From Candidatus Hermodarchaeota archaeon (GTDB lineage: Archaea > Asgardarchaeota > Hermodarchaeia > Hermodarchaeales > Hermodarchaeaceae): a stretch of 64,000 nucleotides of DNA. Positions 4,964 to 56,485 of the stretch are shown here, one piece after another (position 1 is the first letter of the stretch; each line of letters begins with the position of its first letter). The position numbers and the translations under genes are program-made. The notes below the pieces were generated by a model, which saw only the letters and a program-made list of their open reading frames with translations, was not told the origin of the DNA and did not search any database. The stretch is taken from positions 128,001 through 192,000 of the forward strand of contig JAEOTO010000032.1 in the NCBI GenBank assembly GCA_016839805.1, in the 5' to 3' direction.

Positions 4964-5060
4964 TGGAGCCTCGAGCGGGGATTGAACCCGCGACCAGCAG
5001 CTTACTCGGCATTTTCATTCTGCATACGAGGCTGTCGCTCTACCACTGAGCTATCGAGGC
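4964..5060 (-). tRNA. tRNA-Thr(CGU) with a 22-nt intron at 37/38 (5003-5024); CCA encoded
   Basis: Cloverleaf GCCTCGA..TCGAGGC-TCCA; BHB helix CTCG/CGAG with bulges TA|T and TA|A. Confidence 0.95.
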
Positions 5061-22033: not shown

Positions 22034-22170
22034 AGCCCGGTAGTGTAGAACCCTTAAAGATTAGAACCTTTGAGGTGCACTATGGTCAATCATCCGGGGC
22101 TTTGGAACTGTGAATTCAATGGCAGTGAAGTTACCCCGGGACCGCGGTTCGAATCCGCGCCGGGCTACCA
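22034..22170 (+). tRNA. tRNA-Gln(UUG) with two introns: 34 nt in the D-loop at 15/16 (22049-22082) and 27 nt at 37/38 (22106-22132)
   Basis: Acceptor AGCCCGG/CCGGGCT-ACCA; BHBs GTGT/GCAC (AG|A, TA|T) and CTTT/GAAG (GG|A, TT|A). Confidence 0.92.
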
Positions 22171-37380: not shown

Positions 37381-37496
37381 GCGGGGGTACCCGAGCACGG
37401 TCTAAGGAATTTATTGAATAGATTCCGATTAAAGGGGCAGGACTGAGGCTCCTGTGGTGTAGACCTTCGTGGGTTCGAATCCCACCCCCCGCACCA
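37381..37496 (+). tRNA. tRNA-Leu(GAG) with a 28-nt D-loop intron at about 21/22 (37405-37432)
   Basis: Acceptor GCGGGGG/CCCCCGC-ACCA, long variable arm; BHB GGTC/GATT with TA|A and AA|A, inner helix GGAAT/ATTCC. Confidence 0.92.
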
Positions 37497-39400: not shown

Positions 39401-39991
39401 ATGTTAATTGATTGGAGTCAACGAATTATTCAAACCAAGATCGTCTATTATGGACCGGCGATGAGTGGAAAAACTGAAAGTATCCGAGCCCTGTTTCATC
39501 ATCTCAATATTTTATCGCGTCTCGAGTCGATTGAAACAACTTCAGGACGAACCCTCTTTTTTGATTACGGTCCAATTGAACTAAAACACGGTGAGTGGAC
39601 TCTACAAATTCATATTTGGTCGGCAACGGGACAAGACTACTACGCTGAAACGCGTTCAACTGTCCTGGCAGGAACTGATGGTATTGTTTTTGTAGCTGAT
39701 TCAAGCCCTAATTTATTAAACGAGAATTTGCGTTGTTGGGAAGAGCTTAATGGATTTTTTGGAACTCGACTTGTAAACAACATACCGGTTGTTTTCGCAT
39801 TAAACAAACGGGATATCTGGCCCACCATAAGTCGATTTGACTTCATAAATTCTTTGAGATTAAATGGTTCTTCATTAATTTTCGAAACAGTAGCTACTCA
39901 AGGAACATTCACAGTAGAGATATTACAGGAAATTATTCGGAAGATATTACTTGAATCTAGTCTTGCACAACCTAAAAGGATAGGTACATAA
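39401..39991 (+). CDS. MglA-like small GTPase
   Basis: KIVYYGPAMSGKT, RTLFFD, ATGQ, DGIVFVADS, NKRD, ETVA. Confidence 0.92.
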   Translation: MLIDWSQRIIQTKIVYYGPAMSGKTESIRALFHHLNILSRLESIETTSGRTLFFDYGPIELKHGEWTLQIHIWSATGQDYYAETRSTVLAGTDGIVFVADSSPNLLNENLRCWEELNGFFGTRLVNNIPVVFALNKRDIWPTISRFDFINSLRLNGSSLIFETVATQGTFTVEILQEIIRKILLESSLAQPKRIGT

Positions 39992-50569: not shown

Positions 50570-52252
50570 ATGAAGAAAAATGCAACAATACTTCTGATAA
50601 TGGCCATTCTGCTACCTCTGATATGTACTCCATTTTTGAATATAGTAGTCACTCAGGATTGCTTTGTTCAAATTGTTTCAGTTAGTCTAAATCAAACATC
50701 TCTTCAAATTGGAGAAAAACTTGAGGTTAATCTCGTCTATGATTTATATTTTGACCCTTTAGACCCTCTAGGAATAGGATCAGTTAGTGTCACAATAGGA
50801 ATTCAAGGGGTAAGCATTCCTCTGATACAATCAGAATTTACCGATGTTGGAATCGCCATAAATAAAGTAGTTATTTTAGATATCTCTCCAATAACGTGGG
50901 CGCCTAATGAAACCGGACAGGTTGGAAGAGTTCAAGTAGAGGGGTGGGTGCAAGATTCCGTTGGATCGATGACTGATAATGTAGAACAGCAATTCAGCGT
51001 TCAGCAGAGTAATCTCATCTGTGCGATGGCATCAATACCATCTCAAATTTCCTTTCATGATGTTTTCAACCTAACCGGATCTCTGCAAAACCCGAATAAT
51101 ACTTCGCTACCAATTCCCAATCATCCTCTCCAAATATCGGTATTACAGAATGACCAATTAATTCATTCTTGGAATCAAACCACTATACACCCATCTAATT
51201 TTTCACAAACTATCAATACAACACTCATCGGTACTGGACCTTTCAATTGTAATGTAACTGCATCGGAAAGCGATGATTATATCCCAACTGGTACACTCCT
51301 TTCATTCACAATACTAAAGGCAAATATAACGCTCTCAGTCACAACGAATGCTACTGTGGTTCAAGCCTATTACCCTTCAACAAATAACCATTCTCTATTC
51401 GTTTCCGTTCATCTCAACTGCCAATCAGCTAACCATAGTTTTGAAGAGGCTAATGTAACCTGTAGTTTAAGAAATGTTGACACAACAATGGACTATTCTG
51501 ATCTAAACCACTTTTCTACAGTGATAGAAGCCCCCTCTAACCCGGGTAACTATTCTATAACAATTACAGCTCTTACACCCAATCACAATACCATTAATAC
51601 TTCAGTACCCATCCGTGTAGTATCTCGTGATCCCCTAGTCTACTTAGAATCTAATAGATCAGCGGCAGCATATGATGATATTATAGAATTAACAGTAAAC
51701 GTTCTTGATGAAAACTCACAAGAACCAGTAGCGAACAAGACATGCTCTATTTATCTCTTTAATCAATCAGTTTGGAACTTACTAACACAACTAATCCTAG
51801 ATCAGGAAGGAACAGCAAAAATTTCGTGGCTCGCTCAAAACGTCGGTGACCAAGATTTCAGATTCAAAGCCGTCTTTCACGGTGAACCTGAATTTACAAC
51901 CAAAGAAACTGAACTGACCATTACAAATACACGTGAATTCCGGATAATACTAAAATCTACCATTGACATAATTAGACAGACAAACATCTTTTACCTAATA
52001 CAAATTACTGACAAGGATCACCAGCCTTTAACTAACGTTAATTTCACATTAATTGAACAAGCTACAAATTCATCATGGTCTACAGCCTTATCTAACACAT
52101 CCGGCTATGCCACCTTAACATGGTATCTAGCAAGCGACTACGCACTTGGACCCCATGAATTTTCTCTCTTGATTCAAAATGGTTCAATTACACTTGGTGT
52201 AATAGAAGTCATTATGATAGTCTTTGAGCAAACCAAATTAGATTTGGTTTAA
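50570..52252 (+). CDS. Secreted Ig-like repeat surface glycoprotein
   Basis: Signal peptide, beta-rich repeats, about 24 N-X-S/T sequons. Confidence 0.7.
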   Translation: MKKNATILLIMAILLPLICTPFLNIVVTQDCFVQIVSVSLNQTSLQIGEKLEVNLVYDLYFDPLDPLGIGSVSVTIGIQGVSIPLIQSEFTDVGIAINKVVILDISPITWAPNETGQVGRVQVEGWVQDSVGSMTDNVEQQFSVQQSNLICAMASIPSQISFHDVFNLTGSLQNPNNTSLPIPNHPLQISVLQNDQLIHSWNQTTIHPSNFSQTINTTLIGTGPFNCNVTASESDDYIPTGTLLSFTILKANITLSVTTNATVVQAYYPSTNNHSLFVSVHLNCQSANHSFEEANVTCSLRNVDTTMDYSDLNHFSTVIEAPSNPGNYSITITALTPNHNTINTSVPIRVVSRDPLVYLESNRSAAAYDDIIELTVNVLDENSQEPVANKTCSIYLFNQSVWNLLTQLILDQEGTAKISWLAQNVGDQDFRFKAVFHGEPEFTTKETELTITNTREFRIILKSTIDIIRQTNIFYLIQITDKDHQPLTNVNFTLIEQATNSSWSTALSNTSGYATLTWYLASDYALGPHEFSLLIQNGSITLGVIEVIMIVFEQTKLDLV

Positions 52253-52371
52253 TCTAAAATCAATGGGAAGAACAGTATCAGTGAAATTAGGGAAAATCAG
52301 AAGTATTTTTTAAATTATAAACTAACAACCAACCAGGTCTGATTAGGATTGAATTACTGGAGCCACCATTA

Positions 52372-54475
52372 TTGACCAAAAATCAACGCTTCGAAGAATT
52401 ATCTCGACTCATGAAGAATCCTGATAATATTCGTAATATTGGAATCATTGCGCACATAGATCATGGAAAAACTACTCTCACTGACTCATTACTTGCGAAC
52501 GCCGGAATGCTCTCATCAAATCTTGTAGGCCAAGCTAGGGCATTAGATTTCTTGGAAGAAGAGCAACGAAGGGGAAACGTCTTAGCGGTAACTCGCAGAT
52601 GCCCCAATAACCATAAAATCAGCTAACATCTCTCTTCTCCATGATTACCAAGGAAGACAGTACGTAGTTAATCTAGTAGATACTCCTGGTCACGTTGACT
52701 TTAGTGGTAAAGTTACTCGGGCCATGCGCGCTATTGACGGTGCAATTGTTGTTGTAGATGCCGTAGAGGGTGTGATGGCGCAAACAGAAAGTGTGATTAG
52801 ATCAGCAATTCGAGAGGCAGTAAAACCCGTTTTATTCATTAACAAGATAGATCGCCTCATCCGTGAATTGAAACTTTCAGCGAATCAAGTACAAGAAAGA
52901 TTCATAAAAATAATCCAAGATGTAAACACCTTCATTTCGGCTTTCTTAGAAGTCTATGATGATTCAGATTGGTCTGTTAGCCCAGATGACAATACTGTAG
53001 CTTTTGGTTCAGCACTTCACCGATGGGCATTTACGGTAAAACAAATGCAACAGGCGGATCTTCAGTTTCAAAACATCATCGAGTATTATCAAAATCAGAC
53101 AATTGAAGATTTAAGCAAAAAACTTCCCATACACAAACCAATCCTGAATATGATACTCGAGCAGCTTCCATCTCCAAAGAAGGCACAACCATACCGTACT
53201 AATCGGATTTGGAGAGGTGAATCGGAATCGCCTGCGGGATTAGCGCTTCAGCAATGTGATCCGGACAATTCTCTAATCATAGGAATAACCAAAATTATTA
53301 CAAAATCAAAACATGGTATAGTCGCAGTAGGTCGGCTTTTTTCAGGGACTATCCGAAGAGGATCTCAAATCAGAATCTTTCCAAATGACACACTTTACAG
53401 AACTCAACGTGTTACACTTTTTATGGGGTCTCGACAAGTAGTTGTACCTTCCTTAACTGCAGGCAACATTTGTGGGATAACAGGCATTGAAAATCCGCAA
53501 GCTGGAGATACTATTACTGGACAAAATGTCCCTCGAGGGATGGTACCCTTTGAGGAAATAACATATATCAACGAGCCCGTTGTAACCATTGCAGTAGAAC
53601 CGAAACGCCCGAGAGAACTTCCTCGATTACTTTCGTTTCTTGAAATCGTAACCAAAGCTGACCCAAATCTAATATCTTCTGTTAATGAACAAACTGGAGA
53701 GAATTTACTTTCTGGTCTAGGACTTTTGCATTTAGAGATTGCATTAAAAGATATTGAAGAATTAGGAGTTCAAGTTGAAGCATCAGATCCAATCGTGCTT
53801 TACCGTGAGACTCCAAAAACTAACGTCACACTGCATGAATGGCACCTAAGCCCGAATGGGGAAAATGCTATTAAATTATCAATACACCCAAGGTCTATTA
53901 AACCAGTACAAGTCGATGTCTGGCAGCAAGATCCAAAGGGTAATGCTCTTCTGAATCTATCCCCTGTATTAGTACCTGAATCAGCAAAAAAATCAATTAT
54001 TTCGGGATTTCACTGGGCCATGGAAAGGGGACCTCTTTGTGCTGAACCTGTAGGCCAAACACTCATTAGAATCCTGAACCTCAAGCTCAGCGAAAATATT
54101 ACTTATCGAGGAAAGGTTGAGCTTATGTCAATGGTAAAAGAGGCAATTTTCGCAGCTTTTGAAACTGCAGAAATGACTCTGCTAGAACCCATCTACTCAG
54201 TTCAAGTAACAATTCCCTCTGAATATCTTAAAGAAGTGACAGGAGCGATATCCTCAAGAAGAGGACAAATAGAAAATGTTGAACAAAAAGTTTCATTGAT
54301 TTCAGTTTCAGGAATTTTGCCAGTCAGTGAGTCATTTGATTTAGCCGATGATTTTCGATCAAAAACATCAGGAAAAGCGATTTGGCAAACCAGATTTGCC
54401 CGGTGGAAGATTGTGCCTGACCAAAGAGTAGGGCCAATAATAACTAGTATAAGGAAAAGAAGGGGATTAGCTTGA
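52372..54475 (+). CDS. EF-2 paralogue (aEF-2p-like), 690 aa after splicing: join(52372..52576,52608..54475)
   Basis: [15 protein letters not shown]; spliced [24 protein letters not shown]; [24 protein letters not shown]; the diphthamide HRG motif reads YRG. Confidence 0.9.
52577..52607 (+). other. 31-nt BHB-type (tRNA-like) intron in the EF-2 paralogue mRNA
   Basis: GGGG-AA|A-CGTCT..AGATG-CCCC-AA|T: 4-bp central helix, two 3-nt bulges and a paired inner stem; excision restores GGA ATA ACC (G-I-T) in frame. Confidence 0.85.
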
Positions 54476-54488
54476 GGGGGGATTAGAT

Positions 54489-54986
54489 ATCATACTCCGA
54501 ATTGCCGTGATTGGTAGCAGTGGAAAAATCTCAGACAAAATTAGAAATATTGCAGAAGAGGTTGGACAAGAGATTGCCCGCAGAGGAGCCATTTTAATAA
54601 CTGGTGGAAGAGATGGAGTCATGGAAGCTGCATCTCAAGGAGCTAAAAACGCGAATGGTCTAACAATTGGAATTTTACCAGAACATAATGAATCTAAAGT
54701 AAATCCCCATGTCGATGTGGCAATACCTACAGGTATTGCTTTTGCTAGAAATTACATCAATGTAGTTGCAAGTGACGCTATAATAAGCCTTGCTGGTTCG
54801 GGTGGTACGTTAAGTGAAATTGGTTTCGCTATTGCCCTATTGAAACCACTCATTCTAGTTAAGGGAACAGGCGGAGTTACTGATTTAATAGCGCAACATC
54901 ATGAGTTGTTTCCTGAAGCCAATATCCATATTGCGGAAACCGGTTTATTGGCTGTTAATCTAGTTTTTAGTCATTATTCTAATTAG
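54489..54986 (+). CDS. LOG-family protein (TIGR00725-like); start probably upstream of GTG 54507
   Basis: RIAVIG, TGGRDGVMEA, TIGILP, RNYINV, GSGGTLSEI. Confidence 0.85.
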   Translation: MILRIAVIGSSGKISDKIRNIAEEVGQEIARRGAILITGGRDGVMEAASQGAKNANGLTIGILPEHNESKVNPHVDVAIPTGIAFARNYINVVASDAIISLAGSGGTLSEIGFAIALLKPLILVKGTGGVTDLIAQHHELFPEANIHIAETGLLAVNLVFSHYSN

Positions 54987-55369: not shown

Positions 55370-56485
55370 ATGGTGCATTTGGCAATGTGGAGGATTGGCA
55401 GAAGCGACGCAGTTACTGTATGGTCCAATGAAATCGTAGCAAAGCGTTTAACCAGCTATCGATCCATCATTGACCTTAAACTTCTTGCCCGTTATTTACT
55501 TGCACGGAACTTTTCCGTTGAATTTGAGCCTTCAGAGAGCATCTCAACTCTATGGAAGATTCACAAACAGGCCCAAACTAGATTTCAAAAGGAACTAACC
55601 CAAAATCGAAAAAAGAAACTCAATGAAGAAACCAATTCTTTGCAATCCTTCATGGATCTTAAAGCAGCACTAGCAGATAAGATACTTCATCAATGCCATT
55701 TCTGTGAGCGCAGATGCAATATAGACAGAGAATCTCACCTTGGGTATTGTAACGTTGATCAGTCTAGCTATGTATCTTCAGCGTTCCTACACACCGGCGA
55801 GGAACCACCTCTTGTACCATCAGGCACGATATTTTTCAGTGGATGCAACTTTCGGTGTGCACACTGCCAAAATTATGATATCTCATGTAATCCTAAAAAT
55901 GGAAGCCACGTTTCACCCACGCAATTAACTGCAATAGCCGACGAATTGGTGTCACAAGGAGCAAAAAACATAAACTATGTTGGTGGAGATCCGACGCCAC
56001 ACTTACATACAATCCTTGCATCAATGAAGTTTCAACAATTCAACATCACACAACTTTGGAATTCAAACATGTACCTCTCAATGGAAGCAATGGAACTTCT
56101 GACCGATGTCATCGATTTTTGGCTCCCTGATCTCAAATACTTCTCAGAAAAATGCGCAGAAAGAATCTCTGATGTCACGAATTACACCCAAATCGTAACT
56201 CGAAATATCAAAATGGCTTACGACCAAGGAACCAAGGAAATGATTATCCGTGTTTTAGTGCTTCCTAATCACCTACAATGTTGCGTTTTTCCCATTTTAG
56301 AATGGATAGCTGAAAATACCCCTATGGCACTTGTTAATATCATGGCACAATACCGACCAATGTGGCAGGTTGTCCATAAACCTGAAATCTATGGGGATAT
56401 CTCACGGCGAGTGAAGAGAGAAGAGATGAACCAAGCTCATGACTATGCAAAAAAGTTGGGTTTAGAATTTCGATCAGTTAGTTAA
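55370..56485 (+). CDS. PflX-like radical SAM protein
   Basis: CHFCERRC, HTGEEPPL, SGTIFFSGCNFRCAHCQN, VGGDPTP, WNSNMY, MAQYRP. Confidence 0.9.
   Translation: MVHLAMWRIGRSDAVTVWSNEIVAKRLTSYRSIIDLKLLARYLLARNFSVEFEPSESISTLWKIHKQAQTRFQKELTQNRKKKLNEETNSLQSFMDLKAALADKILHQCHFCERRCNIDRESHLGYCNVDQSSYVSSAFLHTGEEPPLVPSGTIFFSGCNFRCAHCQNYDISCNPKNGSHVSPTQLTAIADELVSQGAKNINYVGGDPTPHLHTILASMKFQQFNITQLWNSNMYLSMEAMELLTDVIDFWLPDLKYFSEKCAERISDVTNYTQIVTRNIKMAYDQGTKEMIIRVLVLPNHLQCCVFPILEWIAENTPMALVNIMAQYRPMWQVVHKPEIYGDISRRVKREEMNQAHDYAKKLGLEFRSVS

Follow-up and report, generated by a model that had tools for sequence, protein, structure and literature searches.

The archaeal introns recognized through their bulge-helix-bulge (BHB) motif are the closest described counterparts of the element considered here, and one of them, the intron in the pre-mRNA of cbf5 (the aCBF5/dyskerin homologue), lies in a protein-coding gene. 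We analyzed a stretch of 64,000 nucleotides (nt) from a draft Hermodarchaeota (Asgard) genome of 2.31 Mb that is 86.7% complete (contig C22:128001-192000; hereafter, the window), in which a 31-nt insert at positions 52577-52607 of the forward strand interrupts a gene of the elongation factor 2 (EF-2) family. The gene is assigned to aEF-2p, which we take to be a non-translocase EF-2 paralogue of Asgard archaea lacking diphthamide synthesis. Judged from its anatomy and from its orthologues, the insert is very probably a genuine archaeal BHB intron in the coding sequence, excised from the pre-mRNA by constitutive splicing. The cbf5 intron was reportedly studied by Watanabe 2002 and Yoshinari 2006. 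It occurs in Crenarchaeota (Desulfurococcales and Sulfolobales) and is, as in aEF-2p, a short intron within an archaeal coding sequence (Yokobori 2009, PMC2738675). The two cases have in common a relaxed BHB motif, cut between bulge bases two and three by a hetero-oligomeric EndA (predicted for aEF-2p), a splice site that falls after the first base of the codon of a key functional residue, and conservation of the intron within a clade together with its absence outside (PMC2738675). They differ in the host, which is an EF-2 paralogue GTPase of Asgard archaea (Hermodarchaeota) instead of a pseudouridine synthase of Crenarchaeota, and in that at least three further protein genes of the genome carrying aEF-2p have such introns. 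Moreover, the splicing of cbf5 has been shown by cDNA and in vitro cleavage, whereas that of aEF-2p is deduced from comparison.

Non-canonical tRNA introns with a relaxed BHB (HBh' or hBH) are abundant in Thermoproteales and in Asgard archaea, and the papers describing the relaxed-BHB and Asgard introns deal with tRNA introns only (PMC5829648; PMC11291895; bioRxiv 10.64898/2026.10.13.758758). The geometry of the motif, the size class (~20-35 nt) and the enzymes are shared with the insert in aEF-2p; here, however, the intron sits in an mRNA that is translated. The genetic code therefore puts a further constraint on the exon half of the motif, in which the covarying base is a codon wobble position. 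The introns of HAC1 and XBP1 are likewise short, non-spliceosomal mRNA introns, cut out by a protein endonuclease, after whose action a tRNA-type ligase joins the ends, as would also happen in aEF-2p, and in each case the unspliced message gives no active protein. Their nuclease is Ire1 and not EndA/Sen, their sites lie in stem-loops and not in a BHB, and they are stress-regulated; the likeness is an analogy only, and no regulation is evident for aEF-2p. Archaeal EF-2-family inteins also interrupt the GTPase domain of this gene family. Unlike a BHB intron, they are translated and removed at the protein level, are in frame, span hundreds of residues and carry Hint/LAGLIDADG domains. The searchable literature, outside which most subscription journals lie, did not describe a BHB intron in any Asgard protein gene and gave cbf5 as the sole archaeal coding sequence with a BHB intron, and the paper on aEF-2p does not mention a gene interruption (PMC6143161).

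The interrupted gene

Two open reading frames (ORFs) make up the gene. The one at 52372-52626 (84 amino acids (aa), TTG start) carries the P-loop AHIDHGKT and runs to EEEQRRG, after which come 16 unrelated residues and a stop; the one at 52724-54475 (583 aa) holds the remaining part of an EF-2-type GTPase. The frame of the latter is open back to 52592, and ITIKSAN...DTPGHVDF is encoded upstream of its first ATG. The junction region reads GAG CAA CGA AGG GGA A, then ACGTCTTAGCGGTAACTCGCAGATGCCCCAA, then TA ACC ATA AAA, and when 52576 is joined to 52608 a single 690-aa frame is obtained (EEEQRRG-ITIKSAN...DTPGHVDF), in which the universal switch-I motif RGITI is restored. The parts of the gene and of the insert are as follows:

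52372..52576, + strand: exon 1 of aEF-2p, with a TTG start, 68 codons and the first base of the Ile codon; contains the P-loop AHIDHGKT
52571..52574, + strand: exon strand (GGGG) of the central helix H, forming 4 base pairs (bp) with 52602-52605
52575..52577, + strand: 5' bulge AAA, with the predicted cut at 52576/52577; invariant in 18 of 18 orthologues
52577..52607, + strand: very probable BHB intron of 31 nt, from the sequence, the minimum free energy (MFE) fold and the comparison of 18 orthologues
52578..52601, + strand: inner helix h' and hairpin (52578-52582 with 52597-52601, 52585-52588 with 52593-52596, loop 52589-52592)
52602..52605, + strand: intron strand (CCCC) of the central helix H, covarying with the wobble base of an exon Arg codon
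52606..52608, + strand: 3' cut region AAT, with the predicted cut at 52607/52608; the outer helix closing its 3' side is absent
52608..54475, + strand: exon 2 of aEF-2p, with 621 codons and the stop, preceded by the TA that completes the Ile codon

Against the profile TIGR00490 (NCBIfam aEF-2), exon 1 matches positions 5-70 (E = 2.1e-23) and exon 2 matches from position 67 onward. The two matches abut, and therefore no profile positions are missing between them; their scores (82 bits for exon 1 and 608 for exon 2) lie under the cut-off of 738 bits. Exon 2 contains the switch-I Thr, DTPGH (G3) and domains II-V, and after removal of the insert G1, switch I and G3 are all present. The initial annotation of this DNA had proposed that the two ORFs are halves of one EF-2-family gene, and the abutting profile matches and the joined frame bear this out, as does the insert itself, whose sequence and restoration of the frame are as described there.

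The diphthamide loop, HxDxxHRG, reads SENITYRG in the split gene, the His that is modified being replaced by Tyr. This sequence identifies the gene as aEF-2p as Narrowe et al. 2018 use the term (PMC6143161), which gives a name to the EF-2 paralogue proposed earlier. This paralogue is found in Asgard archaea lacking dph genes and in Korarchaeota, keeps the EF-2 family fold and G1-G5 but has lost the diphthamide loop of domain IV, and in genomes without dph genes coexists with a bona fide aEF-2 carrying R702T (PMC6143161). A second EF-2 copy is present in genomes of the same genus (36% identical, frame of ~802 aa). In one of them, G007, its loop is HEDPAHT, with the R702T change that is the hallmark of bona fide aEF-2 in Asgard archaea lacking dph. 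Neither this second copy nor Dph2 was found in the window's own genome, at its completeness of 86.7%. A break in the frame of the second copy of G007 looked intron-like and was rejected, being a scaffold gap of Ns.

Comparison of orthologues

The related-genome search covered 40 genomes, and DNA was read for 18 orthologues, which are reported as 12 GTDB genomes (the window's own, ten relatives of the same genus and one of a sister genus) and five metagenome contigs found through the protein database. These orthologues span ~55-90% protein identity, and the insert lies at exactly the same site in all 18, splitting the Ile codon of RGITI between its first and second bases. In other Asgard families the site is uninterrupted and reads EEEQ(R/K)RGITIK. 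The insert measures 31 nt in 16 orthologues, and the other two have inserts of 30 nt and of 33 nt, which keep the frame but contain in-frame stops (TGA in L008 and TAG in L043). The three lengths can be reconciled only by excision at the RNA level. With the predicted cuts, frame and RGITI are regained in 18 of 18 orthologues despite the differences in length. Without splicing, the exon-1 frame reaches a stop 6-48 nt past the 5' site in every orthologue. In each of the same-genus orthologues the long frame is open only from about the junction onward (626-669 aa), and no start codon of the exon-2 frame is conserved near the junction, the first possible one ranging from codon -49 to codon +38 relative to the junction among the 18. 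The nearest named record, with 90% protein identity, is a Hermodarchaeota metagenome-assembled genome, in agreement with the Asgard host that the initial annotation had suspected.

A protein search against a collection of 5.8 billion proteins gave a matching picture. The closest protein clusters, 52 in number and at least 52% identical, all consist of predicted proteins with a truncated N-terminus, either of 476-666 aa or, with an intein, of 904 aa, and the next matches, at 45% identity, are full-length EF-2 proteins of 733-736 aa. Directly upstream, a mini-gene of 67-81 aa with a GTP_EFTU match is found in conserved synteny in the seven contigs looked up (7/7). In addition, positions 52372-52787 are spanned, with no indel, by DNA contigs from four other studies, which excludes the assembly error that would have undone the earlier proposal. 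Contigs of two other studies carry a natural variant, T>C at 52593, that turns a G.U pair of the distal stem into G-C, and the variant base is the one present in the 90%-identical relative G013.

Covariation and selection

Pairs were counted on the alignment of the 18 junctions, and as a control the 3' partners were slid by 1-3 columns. The proposed helices are paired in 93.6% of cells, compared with 33-50% for the slid partners. Nine of the 13 pairs changed on both sides (40 cells), and the observed covariation score was reached in 0 of 500 shuffles, a statistic that kinship among the 18 sequences inflates, the slid-partner control being unaffected by it. The central helix, which joins exon and intron, is paired in 100% of cells, with no mismatch in 18 sequences. 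Its second pair is the variable one (A-U in 8, G-C in 7 and G-U in 3), and on the exon side of this pair lies the wobble position of the second Arg codon (AGG versus CGA). The intron base follows the exon base, A being found with U in 8 of 8 cases and G with C or U in 10 of 10. Given that the exon base occupies an Arg wobble position, a synonymous change in the exon is thus tracked by a change in the intron. The inner helix h' is paired in 90.7% of cells, and 8 of its 9 pairs show changes on both sides. The 3' trinucleotide is AAT in 14 of the orthologues and AGT in the other four. An alignment of orthologues had been put forward earlier as a check, and it yielded an intron at the same site, with compensatory changes, in 18/18.

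For the 45 codons on each side of the intron, the ratio of nonsynonymous to synonymous differences per site (pN/pS) is 0.08 in exon 1 (17 orthologues) and 0.13 in exon 2, with pS of ~0.75 around the intron, so that synonymous sites are near saturation. The exon-1 and exon-2 frames are open in all orthologues. These values indicate that both flanking exons are under strong purifying selection, and the pseudogene decay that would have spoken against the gene is excluded.

Fold, predicted cut sites and enzymes

The MFE fold of 52555-52630 contains the GGGG/CCCC helix, the AAA bulge, the stem CGUCU/AGAUG and a distal hairpin GCGG/UCGC. The canonical BHB core is present, with GGGG/CCCC between AAA and AAU, and the 3' "bulge" is open on its 3' side. 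The fold proposed in the initial annotation holds for the central helix, the bulge and the inner stem; its distal stem needs amending, from GCG/CGC only to GCGG/UCGC (4 bp, with one G.U). Three 31-nt deletions, 52575-52605, 52576-52606 and 52577-52607, lead to an identical mRNA, and it is the BHB rule that picks 52577-52607. The cuts placed by this rule coincide with the junction that restores the frame and RGITI, as had been claimed. The rule, a cut between bulge bases two and three, is the one stated for cbf5 (PMC2738675), and in the same genome it reproduces the canonical 37/38 junction of the intron of tRNA-Gln(CTG). A BLAST of the intron against the whole genome gave no second copy; the intron is single-copy, and there is therefore no sign of a repeated mobile element.

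Two EndA-family proteins (PF01974) are encoded in the genome, one of 186 aa with the Tyr, His and Lys catalytic residues and one of 198 aa without the His, and an RtcB (PF01139) is encoded as well. Asgard EndA is described as an (alpha-beta)2 enzyme with a broad-specificity L1 loop, of the type able to cut HBh' motifs (PMC5829648). As predicted proteins, the EndA pair of this genome matches such an enzyme.

Several points weigh against a spliced intron and have to be considered together. The fold energy of the single sequence is not beyond chance (z = -1.62, with 15 of 200 shuffles folding at least as well), and the significance therefore rests on the comparison of orthologues, where the kinship of the sequences has already been noted. 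The outer exon-exon helix h is absent at the 3' site, the positions in question being paired in 41.7% of cells with no covariation among the 18 orthologues; the motif is therefore of the relaxed HBh' form and not the strict hBHBh', as the earlier reading of this junction had it. Without the outer helix, 3' cleavage depends on a broad-specificity endonuclease, an activity that is here predicted. Archaeal translation can begin on nascent RNA, and ribosomes would need to be kept off the unspliced message. Finally, among the sequencing runs listed there was no RNA-derived run with this DNA, and splicing is therefore inferred.

Alternative explanations

Four other explanations were weighed. An inactive pseudogene or an assembly artefact would account for a frame that is broken in the DNA of a metagenome-assembled draft, 86.7% complete. 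The low pN/pS on both sides (0.08-0.13), the near saturation of synonymous sites and the two frames open in every orthologue argue against a pseudogene, and the same insert site in 18 independent assemblies, together with the indel-free contigs of four other studies, against an artefact, so that this explanation can practically be set aside. Translational recoding, meaning a ribosomal frameshift or, as in phage T4 gene 60, a hop past the insert, could draw on three features of the insert in most orthologues, its shortness, its position just after a GGA codon and its hairpin. However, inserts of 30 and 33 nt stay in frame and contain stops, those of 31 nt shift the frame, and no single event fits them all; a matching landing codon (GGA) is absent at the 3' end of the insert, and covarying exon-intron pairing with 3-nt bulges is the signature of EndA. 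We consider recoding highly improbable.

It is also very unlikely that the gene works in split form without RNA splicing, with the two ORFs translated separately or the long one alone. Gene callers do predict two proteins, and in some orthologues the exon-2 frame has a TTG or GTG that precedes the junction by a few codons. The first start of this frame, however, lies at least 8 codons downstream of the junction in 9 of the 18 orthologues. For 7 of those 9 it comes no earlier than codon +18, which places it among or after the codons directly preceding G3; the window's own copy has its first start at +38, past G3. Moreover, conservation of the coding sequence extends to the very edge of each splice site, and the covarying exon-intron RNA helices would be left unexplained. 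Regulated splicing differs from these explanations in being a refinement of the BHB intron and not exclusive of it, conditional removal serving, much as with HAC1/XBP1, to switch the production of aEF-2p. The intron was never lost through divergence to ~55% protein identity, which could mean that it is useful, and since it sits in a GTPase motif the unspliced product would be dead. Yet retention may just reflect the absence of a loss mechanism, no sensor, regulator or condition-dependent data stand behind a switch, and the motif is of the EndA and not of the Ire1 type. That the housekeeping genes dnaG, rpS30e and actin, and most tRNAs of the genome, contain introns of this kind fits constitutive processing, and regulation appears unlikely. 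The initial annotation had gone further in this direction and proposed that splicing gates the GTPase; this found no support, and the introns of dnaG, rpS30e and actin make gating less likely.

Constitutive splicing of a BHB intron is thus the reading that we retain. The data show the anatomy, the conservation of the site, the covariation of the helices, purifying selection acting on each exon, and that the genome encodes the enzymes; from these we infer cleavage, ligation and the constitutive nature of splicing. In the proposed mechanism, aEF-2p would be transcribed as a single pre-mRNA, in which the GGGG of the exon would pair with the CCCC of the intron to form the 4-bp central helix. The 5' site would lie in the AAA bulge, closed by the intron hairpin, and the 3' site in AAU just past the central helix; cleavage and ligation would rebuild the codon A|UA (Ile) of RGITI and yield the 690-aa GTPase, the unspliced RNA giving only the 84-aa fragment. 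A single gain, in an ancestor common to this Hermodarchaeota family, is probable, and the intron has been maintained since because the host gene needs it removed.

Gene context

One element upstream of the gene is a putative promoter:

52306..52321, + strand: candidate promoter element (archaeal TATA box and transcription factor B recognition element), the A/T-rich box TTTTTTAAATTATAAA, read from the sequence ~50 nt upstream of the exon 1 start

No box comparable to it was seen upstream of exon 2 when the sequence was read. The neighborhood of aEF-2p is conserved across the clade, with an unannotated protein of ~560 aa upstream (50570-52252) and, downstream and in this order, an LDcluster4 (PF18306) protein at 54507-54986 and a radical-SAM protein at 55370-56485.

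Other interrupted genes

The tRNA genes of the window's genome are heavily interrupted, and most carry introns, as has been published for other Asgard lineages (PMC11291895; bioRxiv 10.64898/2026.10.13.758758). Within the window, three tRNA-like genes with inserts were recorded:

4964-5060, - strand: tRNA-like gene with an insert, the only one of the three to reach the Rfam tRNA gathering threshold
22034-22170, + strand: tRNA-like gene with an insert, below the Rfam tRNA threshold
37381-37496, + strand: tRNA-like gene with an insert, acceptor stem and T-arm ~78 nt apart

The layout of the last one suggests several introns. ARAGORN in its default mode reported no tRNA in the window, these three genes included.

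Inserts in three further protein genes of the genome were examined by eye; they have the geometry of the one in aEF-2p, and conserved motifs are regained when they are removed. In dnaG, which lies outside the window (C22:35407-35434, +), the insert is 28 nt long, with GCCU/GGGC, the bulges ACA and AAU and an inner stem CUUCA/UGAAG, and its removal restores ...FGQTEGL|LGEDLDLRELQQSGRIGRI (GQTEGL|LGEDLDLRELQ). The rpS30e gene, also outside the window (C22:69656-69685, -), is interrupted after codon 9 by a BHB insert of 30 nt that contains in-frame stops, without which MPGSHGSLT|KAGKVRSQTPK is restored; with its insert, this gene would be invisible to ORF callers. In the actin gene (C32:39919-39946, -), the removal of 28 nt (CACC/GGUG, bulges AGA and AAA) leads to APPE|RMYSVWIGG. 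A second break at the C-terminus of actin, near 39850, showed no fit to strict BHB geometry.

EF-2-family genes are interrupted in other lineages as well. Two genomes of another Asgard genus, G024 (L019, C1 ~445941-445959) and G034 (L021, C4), carry a 29-nt BHB insert right after the GHV of the G3 motif DTPGHVDF, with ACGU/GCGU, the bulges AGA and AAA, and a 9-bp inner stem that shows compensatory differences between the two genomes. A third lineage, G036 (L025, C272), has a 31-nt BHB insert in the P-loop (HIDHG|KTT, locus bases ~1366-1396), with AUGG/CCAU, the bulges AAA and AUA, and a 7-bp inner stem. In both cases the cut rule gives the frame-restoring junction. Relatives of genus g4 (L016 and L017) and the protein P0015 have an intein in the P-loop (GHVDHGK|C...), with frames of 904-924 aa and Hint and LAGLIDADG Pfam domains. 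Taken with the BHB inserts, the GTPase domain of the EF-2 family therefore collects intervening elements both at the protein and at the RNA level.

A genome-wide BHB scan of split ORFs had also been proposed earlier. Genome scans for BHB motifs with ORFs that merge on splicing were run in two versions, one with a looser motif and one with a stricter motif and a codon-usage score. They recovered the introns of aEF-2p and dnaG and showed no enrichment over controls with shifted cut sites (e.g., 267 hits versus 199-261), so that the scan is unable to count mRNA introns.

Significance

Measured against the searchable literature, in which cbf5 alone is reported to need the tRNA-splicing machinery for its mRNA, the aEF-2p gene adds a second gene family, in the archaeal group closest to eukaryotes, and the evidence from exon-intron covariation is unusually clear. 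There is also an effect on annotation, since the 52 closest entries are all annotated as N-terminally truncated GTPases that have a stray mini-ORF upstream of them. In these Asgard lineages, the calling of genes, estimates of completeness and phylogenies based on EF-2-family proteins are therefore affected. The cases collected here suggest that BHB-type mRNA introns are a recurring feature of Asgard genomes, a point relevant to the coexistence of translation with interrupted genes before there was a nucleus. The comparable introns of dnaG, rpS30e and actin point to a general, probably constitutive splicing pathway. Together with aEF-2p and with the EF-2-family inserts at three independent sites in three lineages, these introns are the cases behind a wider and still tentative proposal, plausible at most, that Asgard archaea have a general EndA/RtcB pathway of pre-mRNA splicing in which housekeeping genes are routinely interrupted and introns are gained repeatedly and kept for long. 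If this is true, Asgard archaea, as close relatives of eukaryotes, would already need to coordinate translation with the splicing of protein-coding messages.

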